From: Raillietiella orientalis
Taxonomy: Eukaryota
Assembly (NCBI GenBank): GCA_036172245.1
Contig: JAYWIR010000003.1
Location: forward strand, 6,448,001-6,512,000
Direction of reading: 5' to 3'
DNA length: 64,000 bases
The position numbers were made by a program, and so were the translations under genes. The notes beneath the pieces are model-generated. The model was given only the letters and a program-made list of their open reading frames with translations, made no database searches and had not been told where the DNA came from. This document shows, piece by piece, positions 14,654 through 37,100 of this stretch; within the stretch, counting starts at the first letter, position 1; the number at the start of each line of letters is the position of its first letter.

Positions 14654-17600
14654 TCATACAATCATGAATCTGAAATATATTAATAAAAGTATAAAGAACT
14701 GTGTTTTGTTTTTTAAAATCTAAAGCATATTTTATTTACTATTTTTCTCTAGTTGATTGCATTTGAAGTTTTGAAGTCTAGGAAGGAAAACTGTTGTTGT
14801 GCCAGCAAATGGTGATGTTCCTGTCAGGTATTTTCAAGCTGTTTGAAAATAAATTTTATCCATGTGGCTGTTTTATTTCAACTTGGATTTCCATTCCACC
14901 TAATGCCAAAGCAGAACTGAACTTGTAATTACCATTCATTGATTCCTATGGATGAGTTTTATTTATTGGTTTCACATCAAAGTGCGTTAAACATTGGATG
15001 TTGATGATGTAAGGTTCAGACATGTGTTGAACGAATTTTGTTTACATATCATTCCGTAAACTTAGGTTCCTTTACTTGATAGTGCTCGTGGTAGTGGACT
15101 TGGCTGCGTTTGAACCGGAAATTACAGCTTAAACAAACATTAAAGTTAAAAAGAAAAATCTCACGTTGCATGTATTTTCACTGCACCACCTTGAGAGATT
15201 GTACTGGATACGCCAAACACTCTTCTTATTGGGAAAGTTCACTCACTTGGAGTATGTATACGTTCATTGTGTGTGATAGTATTCTCTCTCCCATGGGAAA
15301 CGCTGCGTACAAGAAGAACCTTTCCTCAGAGAGCGTTGCCTGCACACATCGAAGTGCGCCTTGCAAAACGCAGTTTGCACCGTTGTGCTCGGTAAAAAAA
15401 AAAAAAAAAAAAGTTGTCGCAGCACCTATCGAGGTGCCTGAAGAGAGAATTCGTTCCGTCGTCTGTCGCGTTTAAGGCCACGAAAAGTTGCGAAAGTTGC
15501 CTTTTCCGCTTTTGCCAGCGAGCTTCCTATTTTTCTATCCATCCTTTTCAAAAGGGAAGCCTTGCAGGTGTTCCCTGGGGCTGGCTGCCTTCCTGCCGGC
15601 TGAACTGGATGGCGATGTGCCGCGCCTCCTAAAAGTAAAAGTGTTTATCCTCGAAAAGGGAAAAGAAGAATGATCCGAGAACAAGCAGACGTTTCCAGTT
15701 TGTTACTTTCTCGCGTCTCTCGCCTGGCTCCTTTTACGAGAATGAGTGACAAATGATCTCGGGGATGTGCTGGTTTCCTTTTCGTCTCGGGATCACCCGT
15801 ACTACCACAGATCGTTGCCTCCCCCCCCTCTCTCTCTCACTCTCTTAGCTGTCTCTTTGGAGAAAGCTCCAGAGCGGGAGGAGGAGTTTGCTCTGCCGAC
15901 TCACAGCAAGCATCCCTGCATGGCGTGGATTGTCCAGAGGCAGCGAATGCAAAATTTGGAAAAGAACTTATCGATTTCCTGCCACAGGGGCAAACCAATT
16001 TTTTTTTTTTTTTTCCTCCTAGAGCATCTCGTGACTATTCGCCAGCTAATTTATGCCACTGAGAGGTGTTCACGTCTCGGTTTTCTGTGCATCCGTGCAG
16101 TTCGAATGCACGAACAAACGTTTTCGTAGAATGTTAGATTTGTAGATAAAATTCGTACACGATGCAGGCTCTATGCTTGTTGGGGCTTCGAGGTGCTCCG
16201 AAGTCCACTCGAAGGTTAGGGGAAGAGTTAAGATGGTGTGGGCGGGGGGAGGGGGGAGGGACGCCCTTAGATCCGCTGTTCGCGGGCATCCAGAGAGTCG
16301 GGGGTGTCCGAGGTGGTGTGTGCGTGCTTGTTTTTGGTTCTGTACACAGCCAACCACGGACACGTGTTTTTTCCTTCACCAAGTGCAAGCAGCTCATTTC
16401 GAAAAGAGGTCGCTCGGGGAGTCTCTGGAAGTTTTTTTCCCTCTTGGGTTGCAGGAGTGCGCCACCGTTAATGGCATCGGTAGGCAGCCTTCCGCCAGAC
16501 GACACGTAACAAGTGTTTTTTTGGTTTCGATCGACGCCGTGAATCATTTCTCCAAAGTTTGGAGGTGTCGCTGGAAAGTCCGCTTTCCCTCGCATGGCAG
16601 ATCAGATATTGCCGCACCGTTTGCGTTTTTCCTTTGGCGTTTTCCTGGATCGGACCGCCTTGCGCTGGGTGTTTGCCGAACCTGCGCGAGCGCTCTGACC
16701 TCTCCCGGCTCGAACGCGCTGTCGCATGGAACCTGGGTCAGGGAACACGGCCCCGCCAGGGTATTTCGGGAGATGCGCGAAACCTAGACTGCTACCTCAT
16801 CCGGTTGCCCGGGGATCCAGAGATCTTCCTAGACTGGCAACAAGTTCCATTGGCGAAGCCGGCAGGGAAGGGAGGGGGGAGGGGTAGGAAGGCTCTCTGG
16901 ATTTATCCCTGCAGGGGCACGTGTCGTTTCACTCGCAGTCTGTTTGTCGAATTGCATCTTGATAGCAGAAGCGGTGTAAGGTTTGAAGAGGAGGCACCGA
17001 GTCGTGCTACGGTGCTTCGATCACGTTTCGTGATAAAGCGTGTGGAAGGCATAATGTGCACTTTTATTTGCACATTTAATTCCAATTAGTGGTTATGCAA
17101 TCGATGGATGCACATCGAAAATCAATTAGAGCTAGCAGAAGGGAAGATCTGGGGTGGTGGTTTCTTTGTTTGTTCCTGCTGGTAGGTTCTCTTCGGCCGA
17201 TGCCCACGCATCGCGTCCATCCTCCGCATTCCCCGCTGCTGCTGAGTTGCTGCCGCTGCGAGCCTGCGTACCTCTTCTTTGCTGTTCTTCGTTTCATTCG
17301 GCGCCTCAGCAGTTGACGTCCTTATCTCCCGTGCTTGGGATTTTACAGTCGGAGCTTGTGTGCGGTGTTGTCTCTGTGGGTAACAAATGAGATGACTAAT
17401 TACTGTCGCAAGCTTGGGTGTCCGAGAAGGACCGGCTGAGCTTGCTCCAATGATCCTGTTGGCATTTTCTCGCCTTCGTCGAGTGGCTCAGGTAGTTGAG
17501 GAAAAGCAGCGTGCACCTAGCTGTTTTCTTCTTGTTCTTTTCTCTCTTGTGTTTCTCAGATCTGGCGTCCGAGCACCAGAGTCGGCATTCACGTGTTTCC

Positions 17601-17899: not shown

Positions 17900-19300
17900 G
17901 CACCTTTCCTGTACTCAAGTCAAAGCACCTGGGATGGCTCTCCTGCCTTTCCGGATTGGAGGTTTCTTTGAAAAAAATTCGCTCCTCCTTCCTCGATAAG
18001 TGAATCCGGCCTCTTTCTCTTGCAAAGTCCTCGATCCTCGCCACCCCCCAGGGTGCGGGTGGTCCGGAACCGTGCCTGCTGTGCGGATTGAGTCCGGTCC
18101 GGTCCTTCCCTCGAGCGACCCGAATGTCCGAAGAAGCCCGAGAAAGCGAAACATTCTGGCGAGGGAGGCGCCCCGTGAGGCGAACCAGAGGGGTGCTACC
18201 GCGGGTCGAAGTTCTCCCTCCAGGCGCTCCGCGGGCTCGCAACCGGTCGCCTCCGCAACACAGCCACCGGTTTCCGTGTTCGCAGGATCGGTGGGAAAGA
18301 GAGAGAGAGAGAGGAAGGAACTCTCGTCGTGGTCGTCACTCCAGAAAATCGCCCGGTTGGTCCGAGGCGGATCGGGATTCGCGCCGCAGCCTGCGGACAG
18401 GATGGGGCGCGGTAGGTGATGGACGTGCGCGCCTTCTGTCCTGCGCCTGCCTGCCTGCCTCGTTCCCACGCGTGCAACGCGGAGGCGGCGGCGCAGCCTT
18501 TCGAGCGCGCTCTGATACGGTACTTCCGCAGCAGCGCACCGTCTGCATGCAAGGTGTGCGCGCCGCCGTCCTCTCGGCTCGCGTGCTTCGCGGCTGACCC
18601 GGAACGGAAGGGGCGGCTTCCCGTGGGGTTCGCTCCGGAGGAGCGCTGGTGCTCTCCGCCTGGGCGCGGACGTGCTAATCGCAGCCGCAGCATCAGCCGC
18701 CTAGCCGCCTCTGCACGTGTGGGGACGCTGCCCCTCCAGCTGCGGAGCCGGAGAGTGAGGACCGCAGCCTTCGAACCACTCCATGGCATCCGAGCAAGGA
18801 GCAGACGCCCCAGGACGAGGTCCGGGCAGGTGGCATCGGCAGGACCCTCGACCGGTGACGAGCGTGGAGGCACGCTGGCAGCCCCTGCGTCCTTGAGGGA
18901 CGGGATTCCGACGGTGCTGTTGCCGCATCGTACGGAAGGAAGCGAGGAAGATCGGAAGCAGCAGATCGTGGGAAAAGGGGGGCGCTCTTGGGGGAGGATC
19001 ACGAGACGACCAGGAAGGAACCGGGGCGACCATGACCCAAGACCGTTTCGCAGTCTCCGGCTGCCGTCGCCGCTCTGTCCAGAAGCTCGGAGCGTGCGCT
19101 CATCCTTCGAGCTTTTCTTTTGCTTCGCCGAGTGCCTCGGGAGCCGTCGCGATCCTGACGGCTCACGCGGCTCTTCGATGCCGCTCCACGCCACCGGAGG
19201 GTGCACGCTAACTCTTCGAGTTAGGAGGCACCCGGGCCGAGGGGTCACCCTATGAATCCAAGAAGGGCTCCGGAGGGAGGAGTCCGTTCCTCTCAAAGCT
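17900..19300 (-). mobile_element. Highly decayed L1/Tx1-like non-LTR retrotransposon 3' fragment (copy 1)
   Basis: GCVAEATGCEPAERLEGELRPAVAPLWF parallels CVRCGERESLPHLLVDCVALRPLWF of copy 2, and GIPSLKD resembles the GGLGIP thumb motif. Boundaries are approximate. Confidence 0.4.
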
Positions 19301-19330
19301 TGGGAGGGGAACCGTCCGTCCTGGTTGCTT

Positions 19331-19806
19331 CCGATTCCCACCCGGACGCGCCGGGACGTCTCTTAAAGTCGGAAAGAAACACCTACATTGTGGTAGGAGG
19401 CGCGTGGTTCTACCACACCCCGTTTGTCGACGGATCTGCCGGGTCGCCAGTGTGAGTACAGGCGGGACTCCCCTGGGTGACAAAGGGCTCCCCCTTCGAC
19501 AGGGAAGAAAAGCAAAAACGAAAAACAAAAGGAGAGTATTTGAAAAATCTTGGGGAGGGTCGGGAAGGTGACCACTGCCCGATTTTCACCCAGATTTCGC
19601 CGGGTCGTTTATTTAGAAATAAACTTTACAAAAAAGATGTCAGTGGCTGTAGCAATGCTCTAGCCACGCACGAAGAAACGGAGCCTGCCGGGTCATCGGT
19701 TCGCAGACCGGTACGGTCCTCCAAGGCAGCAAGGGGAGGGGGTAAAACAAAAAACTAAACAAAAAGAAAAAACAAAGGAGTGGGAGGGTACGGGAAGGGA
19801 TCACTG
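19331..19806 (-). repeat. Tandem diverged duplication (~230-250 bp units) of a structured LINE 3' UTR
   Basis: Units 19806-19579 and 19577-19331 share, in order on the - strand: CAGTG..CCTTCCCG.ACCCTCCC, a CTCCTTT(T)GTTTTT U-tract, GACCCGGCAG..TCCGT, a GTGG...CCAC hairpin, and ACG.CCCGGCG...TC.GGGTG..AATCGG. Confidence 0.8.
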
Positions 19807-20900
19807 TTGCTGCTGGGGCCGCATCATCCTTCTCAGGATGCCGGCAAGCTCTTCCTGCATTCGCGGATCCAGGTGGGGCCATCGCGACTCCCTCCTCAGG
19901 AATTGGAGCCCTGGATGGCATCCTTATCGCGTGGTCCTCCCGTAGCCGTTCTCCAAGCGGCGACGATCCCGCGAAGGCAGCACAAGGCTGCTATCGAGGC
20001 CGCTGGCCGAAGGGCTTCGGCAACGAAGAGGGTTTTCAATGCGTCCCTGGGGTTGTCGCAGGGGATACCGATGGCCGCGGCAAAGCGGAACCAAAGGGGC
20101 CGAAGGGCAACACAATCCACAAGGAGGTGGGGGAGGGACTCCCGTTCCCCACACCTAACACAATTGTGATCGACCGCTCCCCAGGTCCAGTGGTGTCGGC
20201 GGGCGTTGCAGGGGAATCCCCAATGCTGCAACAGTAGAGCCGACTCCTGCCATTTTAAGGGGAGGGTGGAAGTGTTCATGAGCACCGGGGGCCACTTCAG
20301 ATGTTTAATCGGAACATCGAGCAGCGCGCCCCAGCGCAGAAGTCCATTGGGAGGCGTACTCGGGGTCGCAGCGTCAGTCAGCTGACCCGTCTTCCACTCT
20401 CCCTGCTTCTTCTCCTTTCCGGAGATGGTTGCTTTAACCTCCCACTTCGCCGCAACATCTCTGTCCTGATCTTCCATCAGGGAGGCCAGCGCAGCAGCGA
20501 GAGGGGTTCTTCCTGACCACGCTCGCTTCTTCGGATCCTTCAGGATCTCTCGGAGCGTGCAACTTCTGTAGCACCCAAAAAGGAACCGTCGTTCCTGTTG
20601 GGAGCGTTGCATGCCGCACTGTGCCCACGTGCGAACTGTTTCCTGCATCCAGGCACTACCGTTCGCGGGGCGACAGGTGATCCATCCTTGATTTTTCCGA
20701 ACCAAGGCAGCCACCCTCCTCAGCTGAAGCCCACATCGGTTGATGCGGGAGCGATGGAGTGAAAGAAAGGACGTGAGTCCCATCTTCCCGGTGGCTTCCT
20801 TGACGAGGAGACGTGCAGGGACGCACCAGCAGGTGCACTACAACTTCGGCACAAGGGTCAACATCCGGAACTGGAGATGAAGCTCCAGCCGCTCCAATGT
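19579..20900 (-). mobile_element. 5'-truncated L1/Tx1-clade non-LTR retrotransposon (copy 2, best preserved; zf-RVT C-terminus)
   Basis: ORF 19896-20783 has the L1-type C-terminal CCHC finger LLQHWGFPCNARR...CVRCGERESLPHLLVDCVALRPLW, followed by a U-rich 3' UTR with AATAAA (- strand, 19608-19613). Confidence 0.8.
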
Positions 20901-20999
20901 CAGGAGACCGAGACCGCAGTCCCGAGACCGTGACCACTGCCCGATGGAAGGAGTCCTCTGCATCCTTTCTTGGATTTCGGATAGGTTCGATCGAATAGG

Positions 21000-23900
21000 T
21001 CTCATATGGGGGCCGTCTCTCCGCCTTCCGCAAGAAACAGGAAGTGCACGCCCGACGGCGTCCCCCCGTTTCTTCCCTCTGTCGGCTTTGCTCTGGTCAG
21101 CCGCAATCCCGCGGATGCAGCAGAGCACCGCTGGGGCTGCGGCTGGCTGCTGCAGTACCCCGAAGGGAACCCCGAAGGGGGGGAACCTCTTCCCTGTTCT
21201 CTCCGGAGGGATTCCCCAGGAAGTATCCTCTACTTCTTCCTCCTCCCTCCTGAGGAGGGTTCCCAGACAGGGGCGCAGCTCTCTACACTCGGGAGAGGCG
21301 TCACCCATCCACCAGCTCCATGGTACGAGATGGGGGGGTCTTCCGCTAGGGAGGGGATGTGAAAAAACAGAGGGGCACCTGAAGGGCTCCCTGATCTCTG
21401 GAAGGACCCCGGAGGGTCGGCTCCTAGTCCGGGCCACTCATCGGGGTCATCAATTTTTTTTTTTTTCCAGCTTCCACCGGTACCTCTCCCGGTTACGAGC
21501 CAACCAGTGTCATCTTGCAGGGAGGGGGGAAGGGGGGGGGGAGGGAGACTCGAAATCTGAGACGCTTTACCCTTCCGTTTTCGGCGTCGATCCTTCCCCG
21601 GGCGGGATTCGAACCTGCGACGCCTGGTGGCGCGCGTGGGGATGGCAGCCACGTGGTCTCCAACTCCCCCTTAGAGTAGGGTAGGGACTTGCAAAACGCG
21701 CCTACACAGGGGAATGTGTGTAGGGGGGAGGTCCGTGGTCCAGGAGGACAGCTTCCAGCAGAGACCATGTCGCCCCCGATGAGCGAGGCAGCCCAGCGCC
21801 TCGCCCGGGACGAGCAGCTCCCCTTCCGAGAAGGGGTGTGGGAGGAGGGGGGCGTTTCTAGGCAACGGGCCACGGAGGATGAGGTGAAAAGCGAACAGTT
21901 GCGAGCGAGTGAGCGAGCTCTAGGAGGGAGATGGAGGGGGACCTGAGGCAGCTGTGGGGAAGGACACGGGGTCAGTCTGGAGCGAGCCAGGAGAGGGAGA
22001 GCGCGGAAGGCGAGGGAGAGGGGTGCCTCCGTCTCCTTGGATGCTCAGTGGATGGGATTCACCCTCCTGGACGACGAGAGGACCTCCTTCACGACGCTTC
22101 TGCTGCCCCTGGGAGGACCCAGGACTCCCGCGCGGGCGGTGGCGCACGACGCGAGGAGACATCGCTTTCCGAGGGTCGCCAACAGAGAGGCATGGTCTCC
22201 CCCTTTCCGCCGACGGCAGCAGTGGCCTCCTCGCAAGTGTCTGCAGCGGGAAGAGAGAGAAACCCCGAGAGGGGGGGAGCGACTCCCCCACGGCAAGGGA
22301 AGGAGCTGCAGAACTCCCGGCCGCACGGCCCGTGTCCCCTTAGGAAAAAGCAGAGACTCTCCTCCGGCGAAGGGCGTTCGAAGCGACAGAGGATGAGGAG
22401 TCGTGCGGGAGGCAGACCGGTACGGAACGGGCGGAAAACAGGACCACGGGGGCGGCTGCCCGCGGGAGCTTCCCGACCAATAAGGGCGTGGGAAGCAGGA
22501 GAGGGCGGCTCCCCTCTCCCGTACCTCGGGGGTATCCGGCGCCAGGGGCCCACGATCGGTCGGAAAAACAGGCCAGGGAGACTCCTGTTACTGTCGTTCC
22601 TCAGGATCGCTTAGGAGTGCCCCGCCCGAGAGTTGAGGGGGAGGGATGGAAGCTGCGAGGAACCTCTGCGTTCGGGGGACTGCATCAAAGGGAAGATGGG
22701 GCGGGCGAGCGGGTCGGCTTCACTACCTCCCCCCCACATGGCACCCCAGGGGCGTCGCAGAGGAGGAGGACGCCCACGACACTCCCGCCGGTTCTTGGGG
22801 CCTGCTGACGCCCTCGCCAGGTCGAGGGCTTTGAAGGGTTGGCCGTCGCTTCCGAGGCAAAAGGTTGCGGGGGCACCCTTCCTGCGGCGGCCCCTACGCG
22901 CTGAAAGCGCGGATGTCTCAAGGACGCAAGGAGGCACCGGGGATGCGCACTTTGCTCCCACGGGGGGAAGGGGGATCCCAGGTGCCTCCGTGGCGGCAGC
23001 TGCGATGGGCCGCCGGGAAGCCCTGTCGCCGTTCGATAGGACGGCGCTCCTCCGCTCTGGGGGAGCTGCGGGAATCCAGTCGGGAGTCTCCCCGCCCCCC
23101 CTCCTCCCCTGTCCCTTCTTTCTCCTGCAACCCCGGACTCATACGCAAGGTCATCCGCTTCACCCCATCCCCGAGCGAGCTCGAAACTTCCCCCACTGCT
23201 CGGCGCCCTTCGCCTCTCCGCAGAGGTAGGGCACTGAGCAGCCCAGCCCGGGTCGACTCCCTGCGTGTCGAATCCCCCAGGTCTTCGTCATCGCACCCGG
23301 AAGCCCGCAGGCTCCTTCGCTGCCTCTCCCTCAACGCCTGGCCTCTGCTAGGAAGGGTTTCGCGAGGCGCGTGGTCACCTTCACCCGGACTTGCCCAAGT
23401 CGCACCCACCCCTGAAGCCACGACCGAGCGGGATGCCTCCCTAGCGAAGCGCCGTAGGCTGCAGCCTAGACGACGCACACGACCCTGACGCACCTTGGTA
23501 ACCCCGAACGTGGTCACGGCGCAGAGGTGACCACGCTTGGGTGCGCCGGAATCACCTCGCTGGCGGGAACGAGCGCGTCGCGTCGTCACCGCCGAGACTG
23601 CCCCTCCCCTCCCCCTTCCCCGTCTATTGGGCTCTCCTTCGGAGCGGAACGTCGTTCCTCCCCTCCTCCCCCTTGCCGGAAAGGGCTTTTCGTGCTGCGA
23701 CCTCAACGAGGGTTCCAGCGACCTCGGCGTCTCCCCGGCAACCAGCTCATAGGCCCTGTACTCACGCGCCGCGTTTCCGCTCTGCGCGGCTTCAGCGCGC
23801 TCCAGTGATCACCCCGCCGTCGCCGCGCGGGTGGCGGCGCACCGCGGAACATCCAAAACGCCGCAGAGGCTTCGTCGGTCCCTGCCGCCAGGCAGCAGGG

Positions 23901-30300: not shown

Positions 30301-31303
30301 CTCTGCGAGTTTCACCCTCCCCCTTTCTCATCCTCCTGGTCGTCGCCATCCCGAGAGAACTTCGCAAGCGGCAGCAGAAGCGGGTTCTTCCTTTTGGCCT
30401 TCGGGACGGAGAGCCTTTGGCCGGCAGTCCAACCTCCTCTTCCCCCCCCCCCCCTTCGTTTTTTTGCGTGAGTTTCGGAGTGGCGGCGGAGGCGTTTTTC
30501 GTGAGATGAGGGAAGAGAAGGAAGGGGGGAGGGAAGCTGCTGCGCCAGCAAGAGGCACGTGCGTGCGCGAGCGAGGAACCTGCCCTTCGAGAGCGACTTC
30601 CGGCAAGAGTGGCAGCGGCTCCGTAGCGCCGCAGTTCTCGCTCACGAATCCCCTGCCCCTCCCCGGGCGCCGGATGACGCCGGCGACGCCGACAAGTGAA
30701 GACAGAGAGGTCTCCGCCGCCGCCAGGGAGACGCCGCTGCCTCCACACGCGCGACGAACCTCTGTGGGAGCAGGGATTATTCCTCCTTTCCCTTTTTTTT
30801 CCTTTTTTTGTTAAAAAAAAAAAAAAACTTCTTGCCCACCCACCCGCTCGCGCGGAGGACTCTCGGGGAGGGGAGCATCCCGTGGGCAGTCGACGGTCGC
30901 GATGGCGAAGGGTTCGAGGGGGTAGAGAACCATCCGCCCCACTCCGTGTCCACCTCGAAGCAGCTTCCTGTCCCTCTCTCGCTGGTGGGTCTCACCGGGC
31001 AGCCGCGGGAAGCGCACCCGTCACAGGGCACCTCCTCCATCCCTCGTCGTAGGTACGGAGACATGTAGGGGTGGGGTGGGGGGAAGACGAGTTCTTTTCA
31101 GGTTCCTCAAGCACACGCACTCCAGTCGCGACGTCCCTGCCCCAGTCCCTTGCAAAGTCGCACATTCAACTACTATTTCGGAAGTGGACGCGAGGCTTAG
31201 AGAGATTGCCTTTGTCCACAGGATGGTCAACTTCCTTCCCGAGAGAGAGCGGAAGATGGATCTGGCTTCGTATTTGTCTTTCGGTCCTCCCGTAATGGAG
31301 AGT

Positions 31304-31454
31304 AGTGGGTCGAACCCGGAGGTACTGCAATACCGGGCCGACCCGCGACAGGAGGGGAGCAAGCTCCAAGCATCCCGTCCGCTTCCAACATGTGGTTTAA
31401 TGTACTGCCCACCGGATAGGTGGCCTATCAGATGGTAAGCTGATGGAAACAGAT
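31304..31454 (-). pseudogene. U2: U2 snRNA, 5'-truncated at about nt 38, Sm site mutated
   Basis: The reverse complement ATCTGTTTCCATCAGCTTACCATCTGATAG...GGAGCTTGCTCC...TGTCGCGGGTCGGCCCGGTATTGCAGTACCTCCGGGTTCGACCCACT matches U2 stems IIa, III and IV (insect type). Stem I and the GTAGT part of the branch-recognition sequence are absent, and the Sm site ATTTTTGG reads ACATGTTGG. Confidence 0.93.
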
Positions 31455-34100
31455 TTTCATTCAATATTTTCCGTTTTTCGATTTATTAATTAATCAATTC
31501 ATTTATTAAGCACTTTTCCTCATCTTCCTGCTCTTCCTTCTGGGGAATGATCAGTTTATGTCATTTTTTATGAGGTCCCTGCTGCAGTCGACAATCCGTG
31601 GTCGGGAAGACGGAATGCGCGAAGCCCTCATGAGGGCACTGGCGGGTGGGAAGGCACTACGGCACTTTCCGAACGGGAGCGCGCGTGGAGCAGGGGGGAA
31701 GGGGAGGGGAGGAGGGAAGAGGGGAATCCGACCGCTTGCTCCTCGACTCATTTCTGGTTGAATTCCGGCGAGATGCGGAAGACCGCCTGGTCAGAAAATA
31801 GTCCTGCGCCAGGGTTATCCCAGTCGGATGTGGACTTCGGGAAGGGCAGCGAGGCAATCAGAAAGAGATCTCTAGAGGATCGCTAAACTGTGGAATCGAA
31901 GCTCTTCAAAGAGGATGCATGGACGAGGAGGGTTTACTCCTGGAGGAGCAAAAGTCCGGCATGAGGAGAACTCCGGAGGAGGCCCCGACCCAAAGATCCG
32001 ACCTTCCGCTACTCCCTTCTCCTCCTTGTGCCAAGTCGCGGCAGCCTCGGAGGGACAAGAGGTGAGGAGGAGGCGAAGAAGGAACGAGCCGGAGCCTCGA
32101 GGTTTCGCCCGCAGGGGGAGCGTCGAAGACCGGAAGGGCAAACGAGGCCAACTTTCCTCCGTGGAAGGGACGGGAAGCGGAGGAGAGGAGTGAAGAGAAG
32201 GAAGGGGAGGATTTCGCAAGGATCTTCGAGAGCCGCACGAGGTTGCGCGCGTCGGGGGCAATCTGCCAGCGGAAGGTCGCGGGAGAGAGAGAGAAGGATG
32301 TTGCAGCATCTGGACCGTCTCAAGACTGCCAGAGAGCCTGGACGAGTCTGAAGCAGGAAGAGGGATACAGAAGGCTCGAAGAAAGGACCACATCACTGCA
32401 TTAGTGAGTTCGGCAGCTCCGGCCGAAGAGGAAACAGAAGCGCACCCTCCAGCCCTTCGAGTGGCGCACCTTAGGATGCGCTGGAAATTCAGGAAAGGCT
32501 GCGACTGAAAGCAGTTGCCCCCCCCCCCCCACACACACACACACCTCTCTCTCTCTCTCTCACCCTGAATCCCGGGTTCTGCCGCTGCCAGCCAAAAATA
32601 CAAGAGGAGGGGGGGGGGGGCTTGCGATCAGCTGAAGCAGAGCTGCGCAGGGTCGCCTTTCTGTTCGGAGCGAGCGATGAGGAGCGGAGAGTAGGGAACG
32701 GGGAGAATCGGGAGTGCGACTCAACGGGACCGCAAAATCCAAGAGAGCGAGGGACGCATCATTCGCTCCCCTCTTCCCCCCTCCCCACTCCCGGGCTTCG
32801 CGCGGCGCGTGCACAGGACAAGGGGAAGCGCGTGGGGGCGAGCGTCGTGGGCTTGACGCGGCCTCTCCGCGGGGCAGGCAGAGCGCAGAGGGGAGATTCC
32901 AGTGGAAGAATCCTTTTCGGTCCGTGACCGACCTCCTCTACGAGACGCACAGTGGACCTGCACTCCGGGGGGGGAAGGGAAGGATCAGGGAGGTCATGGG
33001 ACGGGAAGGAACTCAGGATTGTAGGGGGGGGGGGGGAGGGTGACATCGCGTCGGAGGAGCAGACCGTCCGTTGTTGTTGCTACCGCCCTGTTCGTCGAAG
33101 AAGCTGGGTCACGTCTGCTGCTGCTCAGAGCGGACCAACTGGGGAACGTCGATCGAAGAATTCATCCCCTGCGGCACTAAGTTGCCTGACGGCAAGGGGT
33201 ATGGAACCGACGTGAGATTTCGTTTGCAATCTGCTTCCGGCTCTCAGTGCACAATGGCAGCAGCGACGACCGGAATGACCGTCGGCTGGGCCGCCGGATC
33301 CGAAGTGCTTAAAGCCAGTAAGGCTAAGAGGAGAAATCCCTGTTGTCCTCCTTTTACGATGATTCTCCTCCCAGTCGCCCCCAACAGCTAGGGGACTTCA
33401 GGCGTCGTGGCCCTGGGCAGCAAAAAAGAGGAGAGTTCCTGAGGATGTTCTGAGCCGGAAATAAGTTCCTTGCTTGTCGGACGCAGTGACCAATGCGGAT
33501 GAGAACGTACTTTCACCACGTTCGCGTCCTCTCTGTGGCCAATGAAGGATCCGCGTGCCAGAAATAGTGGATGGGAAATGGCGAGGGTCGAAAGGGAGAA
33601 GGCGTGTACACGTGAGAGAGAGATGGCGAGGAGGAAGGGCGGGTAGTAGGAGGATGCCGAGTCATCGGAGCGTGCGAGTAGATGGGAGGAACGACCGAGA
33701 AGATTGGAAAATGATCCGACCTTCAACTTTGTGGAGATTCTGTCCCGGGAGGTTTCGTAACTTCCCTGCCTTCCGCTACGATCAGGAAAGCGAACGAGGG
33801 GATCTTCGTTCAGGGAACGTCTTCGTGGCGAGCTCTTCAACCACAGCTCAATCGCGAGTCCGGGAGTCGGGAAGCGCAGGGGGCGTCGGGGAGTTGGAAT
33901 TCGACCTGCACGGCCGCTCTCGCACCGGCACGGGGGGGAGGGAGAGAGAGCGTTCCCGCCGACGCTTAAAGAACGAAAGCACGGGTCCACAGCTGGAACT
34001 GCGCTTTCAGCGTGGCACGCATCCCCTCTGCCACCCCACTGGCGGTCAGGCCACATCCCACATCGTCGAGCATGCCGGCGTAGAGCCGAAGCACGGTCGC
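31455..34100 (-). mobile_element. Decayed R2-group (NeSL/Utopia-like) non-LTR retrotransposon abutting the U2 fragment
   Basis: One - strand frame, read through a single stop at 33388, gives LWLKSS...STKLK...DANVVKVRSHPH...LLPRATT...TGRRIIVKGGQQGFLLLALLALSTSDP (cf. DLSNAFGSIPH; LY..ATT; GVKQGCPLSPLLFN...DP, with the same QG-x12-DP spacing). The C-terminus LMR...IVDCSRDL (~31560-31635) recalls Utopia LMR...IRWSRDI. An AT-rich tail with two AATAAA (~31482, ~31502) runs directly into U2. Confidence 0.6.
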
Positions 34101-37100
34101 AACGGCGACGAACCCTACGCGGGCAGCGCCAGCGTTTCGTTCGGCCTACTGGCCCTTTCGCCCCCCACCCCTTCTTGGTTGTTCTTTGGAGTTCTCCAGC
34201 ACGCTAATCGAGGCCCGGAAAATCAATCTCCTCATAGATTCGTTGCTGTTGCCTACTGGTCCTTCCCGGGTCGTCTCGAAGTTTCGTTTACCGCGGTGAC
34301 GCTGGCCACGGCAGGCAGTAGCCGTTGCTGGCGGTGGGCGGCGGCTCTCGCACGGGAGCTGCTCCTCCCGGTGGCACCTCCTCTTTTCGGGGCATTTCAC
34401 GAAAACAGCTTCGTGAAATGCTTCGGCGTCATATTCAGTCTCATCGCACACAGTCGTCATGCGCTGCGCTGATAGGAAGAGCAAACACGCGGCCTTGTGC
34501 AAATAATTTCACCTCTGTGGTCGGTGGTGAGTCAGAGGGAAAGCGCCCTACAAAAAGTGCGGATTAAGTCGAGTTCAAGAAGAAGAAGGAAACAGAAAAC
34601 GAAAACAAGTAAGAGTAAGCTCTCCCTCCTCCAAGAATCGTATGGAACGGGGAGAGAGGGAGGGAGGGAGAGGGAGAACACCAGCAAGCAAAAGGATCCA
34701 TCTTTGGCGAAAAAGATTGCGATTTAAAATTCGAAGAACAGGAGGGGAAGGATACTTTATCTCCTCTTCCGCAGCATTCACACAGCCGCCGCCGCCATCG
34801 CAACCAGAATGGAACGGCATCTGTGCGTATGCATGCATTCCTTTCCATTGCTTCTGGAGCCATCCCCTTCGCCAGTCAGCACCTCGCGCCGAATTGCAGC
34901 CATCAACTTCGCACTTCCGCCCTCCCCCCCGCTTTCCCTCCCCGTCCTCGACATTCATTCAGATACAAAGTCATTGCCTGGAAGGAAACCCTCGCGGTTT
35001 GGGAGTGAGAGGCGAACCGCTCACCTCGCGACGATCCGCGTGGATTCCCAGAACAACGGTCATCCCAGGAACGACGAGGCCCCGCGGGCCGAAACTCCAG
35101 TAGGCACCCGCCCGCGGCGCTTCGGCCGTCGGCCGGCGCAAACCAAGGAGGAGCAGGAAACTTCCCTCGAGGCGCGGGGGCGAGCGAGGTGAGAGCCCCC
35201 TCCGATCCCCTCCAGGGCCCCCGCGTGTCCCCAGGCAGCGGCGGTCTCGGAAGCCGGGAAGGAAGCACGCGTGCCCATTCATCACGCACGGGAGTCGCCC
35301 GGAACGAAACAGTGTCAGAATCACGTGGAAACGGCGCTCACGTTCGGTAATCAGAGGAGCTCTGGCGAGCATCTCTCAGCAGGCAGTTTGTCATCAGACT
35401 GCAGAGAACGCAACGGGCTCCCGGCATTCGGAAGGCACTTTGGGGAAAACCTTTTCTTCTTCTTCTTCTTCTTCCTCTTTCTCCTTTTTTTTTTTTTCTT
35501 TCTTTTTAACGATTTTCTGTTTGCGTGGGTTACGACCGTGATGAACTTTCGATCACTTTTATCGGGAAGCGGTGGATAATAATTATCCTCTTTCTCTCTC
35601 TCGACGCAGCTCGAGCTCCGATGAAGGGACCGTGGGATGCGCCTGGAAACGGTCGGCTCAGATAAGGGTACGGCTCCGCAAAGCGTGCTCCGAAGGATCA
35701 TGTGACCACCGGCAAGATAACGGAAAGACGGTCATGCGAAATCAACAGTTATCACGGCCATTTGCTGAAAAGCACACTTTCGTTTTATAGTGCGCGGCGG
35801 GTCCGTTTTTCCGCAAATGCAGCCGTCGAGAGAATTCCTGCGCTCCCAACCCGAGAGACCTTGGAGGGCGGCGAGCCGCAATCTCTTTTTCCGTCCAACC
35901 TCGGGCGGACATCGGCGAAAGCGCTCGCTCGCTCGGGAGCCCATCCCGCGCGGCAGCCGCTCAGCGGGGGCGGAGGAGGATGAAGAAGAAGAAGAAGAAG
36001 AAGAAGAAAACACACACACACACAGACACAGAAAAAGGAAGACCGAAGAGCCGTCTTTCGCTGCTGAAGATACGGCGTGTCTTTCTCTGGTGGAGGGGCG
36101 CGCGGAGGAAGCTGGCCTGGCGGCCGGGGCGGAGCGCGAAAAAGGCCCGGTCGGCAGCTGCAGCAGCAGCCCGAGCAGCTTTCGGTCCTTCCGCCGCCCG
36201 AGGGCGACCCCCCGAGTTCCTCGGACACCGCCCCGGCCGCCATCCTCCGGTGGTCTCCTCCGAGCAGCGCGCTCGGCTCCTGCAGGCAGCGCCCACGGGG
36301 GCGCGCGCGCGTGCACGCCGCAACTGTTTCGTCACGCGCGTAACAATGCAACCGTATCGATCGCCGTTGCCAGGCCGGCCCCGTGCCCGTGGCCGCCGCT
36401 CTTGTGTGTAGGCGACCTTTGTTTTTTCCCGAACGAGGATGGTGTTCGGATGTGTGTCCGTGTCGTTCTTTTTGTTGTGTTTTGTTGTTGCTGTTGCATT
36501 TTCCTTTTTGGGGAAGGGTGGTGTTAAAAGTTATCAGTAGTGTTTTCAGTGCACTTCACTTCCCTCTTCTCCCCCTCCTCCCCCTTTTTCTCTGTTTCTT
36601 CCAAACGTGCAGCTCCTGTTCGTCAAAGTTCCTTTGTGTTGCTCCTCCACTGGTGGTGTAAACACATCAGTGTAGCTCGTGTGTACTCTCCAGCGACTTG
36701 CTTTGCTGGAATGATGTCAATAACAGTGCGGGGGGAAACCGACCCAAAAGTGAAAAGCAGAAAGCGTCACGCCTTGCTCTGAAAAGTTTCCTTAGCAACT
36801 TATCTGCAAGGTGCAAATAAATCTTCCTTGGAAAATGGGTCAGTACTCGGGTTGCACAAGCGATCCTCGCACTGCGATTGCGGATCCGTTCTTGAGAAAC
36901 CCACTGATAGATGGCTGTCGATCGGACTTCGGGGGAGGATGCTCCCCGGGAGACGCGCAGCTTCCTTTCCGCTGGTGCGGGACAAAGCGTGGACGGAGGC
37001 TGCAGAAGGTCGCTCAAGGAGAGCAAGAAAATGGGGAGCGCACTCCGAGAAACGGGTAGATGAGACCGGATCAATTGGAGGCTGCGGTTCGCATGCCGTT

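Follow-up and report, generated by a model that had tools for sequence, protein, structure and literature searches.

We propose that read-through RNA of Utopia-type retrotransposons has carried the elements' own U2 snRNA target to off-target sites in this genome (3′ transduction), a reading to which we assign a probability of about 0.6. The U2 fragment in the 64-kb stretch of DNA analysed here (the window) probably belongs to a very short, 5′-truncated Utopia-type (RLE) copy that carried along the target sequence lying downstream of it. Taken by itself this copy is an ordinary dead fossil fragment, and the genome-wide pattern weighs more heavily. The proposal follows from the uniform junction, the dispersal of the U2 pieces and the ladder of their tail ends, from a large excess of U2 3′ halves over promoters with 5′ halves, from upstream DNA that the loci do not share, and from duplication-bracketed units outside U2 genes.

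The Rfam model RF00004 matches the window at 31300-31498 on the minus strand with 80 bits against a cut-off of 46. The 5′ portion of this match is A/T-rich non-U2 sequence, and true U2 alignment begins only at ATCTG at 31454. Rfam and alignments together place the U2 3′ part, from host nt 39 to the end, at 31302-31454 (minus strand); the host U2 has a 5′ half of 38 nt, and given that it contains one extra A, the window piece begins at host nt 39. Utopia elements are RLE non-LTR retrotransposons that target U2 and belong to the NeSL clade (Kojima and Jurka 2015, PMC4640811; cited here from excerpts, as are PMC4494074, PMC5322556 and PMC6795142). The window junction shows the Utopia arrangement, in which the 3′ end of the element meets U2 at nt 39 (TCTG), and (A)TCTGTTCT at this point agrees with the junction drawn in S1 Fig of that paper. 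Two AATAAA hexamers occur upstream of it (31482-31487 and 31502-31507), and ATGAAA directly adjoins it. The abrupt U2 start at ATCTG behind an AATAAA-containing tail, as originally predicted with the Rfam model suggested as the check, is thus borne out, and like the original reading we found no U2 5′ half in the 64-kb window. Against the youngest copies, the U2 piece shows 21-23 differences over 153 bases. It is followed by ~145 nt of non-coding U2 gene 3′ flank (31157-31301, minus strand), which shows 72-81% identity with other dispersed copies and then ends.

On the other side of the junction, the putative Utopia-type 3′ end, comprising 3′ UTR and AATAAA tail, covers 31455-31590 on the minus strand, with the best support at 31482-31537. 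The top match of a Utopia 3′-end profile in the 64-kb window falls here (31587-31509), weakly at E 0.54, and pairwise comparison of the remnant with its best DNA match, sister locus L068, gave z 6.8, above 100 of 100 shuffles. No coding remnant (RT, zinc finger or endonuclease) was detected in the window copy by tblastn, profile or codon-region scoring, and its apparent tie to Utopia, which comes from the 3′ UTR match, is weak. Candidate target-site duplications, 15 of 18 bases identical, lie on the minus strand at 31572-31589 (left) and at 31130-31147 (right), the latter ~10 nt past the point where the shared flank stops. Their score of 10.5 is the highest of 53 loci (null ≥10: 0.6%), for a candidate that was chosen post hoc and whose score under stricter scoring is reached by 9% of the null. 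The left bases also resemble the C-S-R-D codons of the element and are therefore ambiguous.

Further upstream, ~2.6 kb of decayed RT had been predicted, and this was not recovered. With two Utopia-type proteins from the same genome (sister locus L064) as queries, tblastn gave a best E of only 5.5 in 31.5-34.1 kb; among 37 sister loci the same queries match 22, in sense orientation. A 51-homologue profile reached -7.1 bits in sense over the 3 kb upstream of the window junction, as against more than 10 bits, also in sense, at 25 of 40 sister loci. Pfam searches of two long minus-strand window ORFs returned no domain. We also compared 31.6-34.1 kb by tblastx with ~0.98 Mb of the examined loci; the best E was 5.5e-4, spread over short low-identity stretches, and we rejected these as RT. 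The S.PH, QG and LMR...SRD motifs that underlay the prediction do occur in the translation, but the DNA under LMR is at background (score 15.3; null 13.4 ± 4.4; true copies 37-71). LMR..SRD was likewise dismissed as the end of an element ORF, the match being just 18 nt long and the DNA upstream of it at background level. At most ~135 nt of element are left in the window. We therefore regard 31591-34100 (unstranded) as non-element DNA without RT similarity; it is essentially single-copy, 31560-34200 having one 74% match at 31653-32025 (~370 nt), a low-copy repeat. The sole paralogue of this repeat was considered as an empty site and rejected, since homology ends short of the insert.

Elsewhere in the window, an exon of a RhoGEF-domain gene lies at 2382-2933 on the minus strand (Pfam E 8.5e-7), and GC content rises at 15000-17000 from about 0.30-0.45 to about 0.55-0.70, staying high for some 40 kb. 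The end of a Tx1/L1-like element occupies 19000-21700 on the minus strand (ORF 19899-20837; zf-RVT E 0.0011, below cut-off). This repeat is very common across the examined loci, and one copy splits the U2 tail of locus L144.

The family of the insert was evaluated from sister loci. L064 carries two Utopia-type frames, of which the upstream copy matches RVT_1 (Pfam E 1.6e-33) and the downstream one has RT, CCHC and RPD..D, the last two read from the translation, and ends ~150 nt before the same junction. The Utopia domain order (RT, zinc finger, endonuclease) is present in sister copies at this junction, and all protein-bearing sister loci are of the RLE type. The top named database matches are arthropod; the list of database homologues, which covers the closest relatives of L064, contains Camponotus floridanus, Solenopsis invicta, Ixodes scapularis, Pelodiscus sinensis and Ladona fulva, all five of which stand in the Utopia host table of PMC4640811. 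The likeness to Utopia as described there comprises the (A)TCTG 3′ junction, the AATAAA-rich end and RT, zinc finger and PD..D in sister copies, as well as several families per host, tandem copies and weak specificity in some families.

The same 3′ junction in U2 is used by Keno, an APE element of the Tx1 clade (PMC4640811, PMC4494074), Tx1-like elements are abundant in this genome, and the window remnant carries no protein signal. These points would fit an insert that is the 3′ end of a Keno element, or a U2 piece that is an unrelated truncated pseudogene. We nevertheless consider either very improbable, given the RLE character of the protein-bearing sister loci; given that none of 39 oriented loci has a Tx1-like C-terminus at the U2 junction, the window's own Tx1-like C-terminus serving as query; and given that L068 carries an RLE C-terminus. 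Neither was an APE/Tx1-type element seen at any examined junction, a difference from Keno. On these sequence comparisons Utopia is favoured over Keno, as originally proposed, with sister loci as the support and the window's own supposed RT contributing nothing. Target specificity of the Utopia-type elements appears relaxed or mixed in this genome, where they do not reside strictly in U2 genes. A U2 tail lies within 700 nt of 10 of 150 RLE C-termini, a set that includes other RLE families, and six of these ten are among the eight closest relatives. L141 and a neighbouring locus contain RLE elements from a different family, and the sequence that comes after them resembles 28S rRNA.

The original prediction had proposed collecting other genomic U2 copies for comparison of junction and upstream sequence. 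Within the 210-Mb assembly, the U2 of the window has 40 other matches, and the junction motif has 81 (control 0) on 36 contigs. The same junction thus recurs in 81 pieces, and upstream the RT profile is matched in the 25 of 40 sister loci given above. The pieces are mostly far apart, 6 of the 81 having a neighbour within 20 kb. Native U2 nt 31-38 precede the junction in 0 of 38 loci, and a U2 5′ half lies upstream in two of 38 loci (300,722 bases searched), both at promoter-bearing places. Tails end 21-418 nt past the junction and form a continuous ladder over 57 loci, often ending inside the gene 3′ flank; they exceed 200 nt in 22, in a sample that was chosen by U2 similarity and is biased toward long tails. 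For L061 and L092 the tail length was set by hand where the alignment overran into an unrelated repeat. In the ten loci whose flanks are similar, no collinear DNA is shared upstream of the element. Target-site duplications scoring ≥9 were found in just 7 of 53 loci (null 3.2%; four of the 57 left out for short flanks) and are absent from most long-tailed copies.

We found no intact U2 gene in the assembly among the 38 Rfam U2 calls above cut-off that we examined, the best of which scored 115 bits, a result of some consequence for annotation. A promoter with a U2 5′ half occurs at four places in the genome, in each case followed by non-U2 sequence, and Utopia-type elements interrupt promoter-bearing U2 genes at nt 38/39. 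A cluster at L064 and L198 (C30:2719000-2730399) comprises two promoter-bearing 5′ halves, one of them inverted, together with a single 3′ half and three or more Utopia copies; it is likeliest the remnant of the real U2 locus.

Given such insertions, the window copy might itself be what is left of a real, dispersed U2 gene that Utopia interrupted where it stood, its 5′ half and promoter deleted then or later and its flank eroded; we judge this unlikely. The exact junction with ~145 nt of authentic gene flank behind it would be expected of such a gene, two other copies share ~350 nt or more of flank, and loss of the upstream U2 5′ piece has been described for in-gene Utopia insertions in Phytophthora (PMC4640811). 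The genome is dense with other insertions, and an older, diverged promoter could have escaped the promoter searches. Element 3′ UTR type and flank type do not covary (Mantel r -0.20, P 0.96, 29 loci), which leaves a small number of master loci unsupported and fits in-place disruption. However, the 5′ half is retained at all four promoter-bearing loci, the 36 of 38 loci that lack it have nothing upstream in common, and neither the short tails nor the duplication-bracketed chimeras can be whole genes. That the insertion hit a U2 gene here is doubtful, since the copy has neither promoter nor 5′ half and is one of a dispersed group whose U2 tails are ragged.

We give very little credence to a two-step origin, in which a U2 retropseudogene or fragment landed first and Utopia then entered its target site. 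U2 fragments that span the junction do exist (L082, L214), but they are rare, with one (degenerate) match across nt 20-48 as against 549 matches to U2 5′ heads. Moreover, a copy of the mature RNA would lack the 145 nt of flank, and upstream there is no 5′ half.

For 3′ transduction, the preferred reading, the starting point is observed in the form of Utopia-type elements at nt 38/39 of promoter-bearing U2 genes. Transcription would run through such an element into the remaining U2 and its 3′ flank; the element's protein would then nick a non-U2 site and prime reverse transcription at a variable point in the read-through tail, for the window copy ~145 nt beyond the U2 end, leaving a tail of ~298 nt. 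Synthesis would stop early, in this case after ~120-135 nt of element. The product would be a dead cassette of element 3′ end, U2 39-191 and flank where no U2 gene had stood, and variable off-target priming points would give rise to the ladder of tail ends. Downstream target sequence in R2 read-through RNA has been reported to aid integration (PMC6795142). U2 5′ heads on truncated copies might arise through co-transcription from truncated in-gene inserts, which occur in this genome as potential templates, or through template jumping onto U2 RNA. We counted against transduction the weakness of the window remnant, the post hoc and scoring-dependent duplication, the few loci with duplications, the lack of UTR-flank covariation, the 5′-piece loss reported for in-gene Phytophthora insertions, the promoters possibly missed and the sampling bias toward long tails.

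The 549 U2 heads are matches to nt 5-30 across the genome (control 0). Thirty perfect matches sampled from the first contigs (L151-L180) are promoterless, have unrelated flanks and end at nt 30-37. Duplications of 7-17 bp score ≥7 at 13 of the 30, compared with 3.1% of swapped pairs, and no TT/AAAA-like L1 site motif was apparent in them by eye. By contrast, the 119 U6 5′ pieces in the genome have variable 3′ ends (L181-L196) and extend beyond nt 40 in 12 of 16 sampled, which indicates that the sharp stop is particular to U2. A search with a U1 motif as control gave 0 matches and missed the U1 gene itself, and is therefore uninformative.

Most heads are solo. Among 100 listed heads, at least three are followed by a Utopia end or a U2 tail. 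The chimeras join a head to a truncated Utopia, and some also have a U2 tail; three are bracketed by duplications: L144 (head, 0.85 kb of Utopia and U2 39-95, between duplications matching at 11 of 12 bp), L136 (head and Utopia, 11 bp duplications) and L200:922-1118 (head, 55 nt of Utopia 3′ UTR, U2 39-~95 and a U6 5′ piece, all enclosed by 12 bp duplications). All three lie outside U2 genes, complete units of U2 piece, element and U2 piece among them, and the U6 piece in L200 points to RNA templates. It is possible, although we hold this only tentatively, that the Utopia protein uses U2 RNA as a routine co-template, with priming in read-through U2 tails at off-target sites and nt 1-37 serving as a 5′ homology arm by priming on, or a jump onto, U2 RNA at the branch-recognition loop. 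If so, a single habit would account for the scattered 3′ halves, for truncated copies capped with U2 and for the ~550 solo heads; new target fragments would be seeded genome-wide, and tailless U2 copies would be RLE-made rather than L1-made. Alternatively, the abundant Tx1-like elements may have produced the solo heads.

Utopia itself, families with weak specificity, snRNA chimeras and tailless copies have all been described before. Turtle Utopia copies (S1 Fig, PMC4640811) carry ragged U2-like tails, mostly about 4-16 nt, which the excerpted text takes as a preference for U2-like sites; here the tails reach 418 nt, include non-coding flank and lie at dispersed sites. We found no description there of truncated Utopia copies with promoterless U2 heads, nor, in the limited literature consulted, any account of U2 3′ transduction by Utopia or of long U2/flank tails on dispersed copies. 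The solo heads are 5′-complete, 3′-truncated and duplication-flanked, as are the tailless U2 and other small-RNA retropseudogenes that Noll et al. (2015, PMC5322556) attribute to internal priming. Those copies are described as L1-dependent and, among vertebrates, occur in therians and anole, whereas the 549 matches here come from an invertebrate with a 210-Mb genome and break off a little before the Utopia site. SINEU and other snRNA-LINE template-switch chimeras (Kojima 2015, PMC4494074) likewise have U2 heads of ~32 nt on retro-inserts; unlike in SINEU, the junction differs in each chimera seen here (L176, L199, L200), and these look like independent events and not a SINE family with a master.

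These data suggest that an element "flanked by U2" can have carried its target with it and not have hit it there, and carried targets would inflate estimates both of Utopia specificity and of disrupted U2 genes. The pattern would be a record of a site-specific element relaxing its targeting while reliant on a low-copy gene, a question raised in PMC4640811, and it shows that tailless small-RNA copies can be numerous outside mammals.

Several further loci show related arrangements. L190 is a full-length U6 that terminates in a run of T and may be a real gene. Serial capture at one site is seen at L215 (C22:1324050-1324450), where two U2 heads accompany a 17-bp unit present three times, and at L165, where a U2 head is followed by a U6 piece. 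At L145, L146, L203 and L084, U2 39-~60 is followed by TG-rich sequence resembling the 5′ end of another element, common to L145 and L146; tandem insertions with a U2 duplication of ~21-26 bp are possible at these four loci, close to the 20 bp reported for reptile Utopia.
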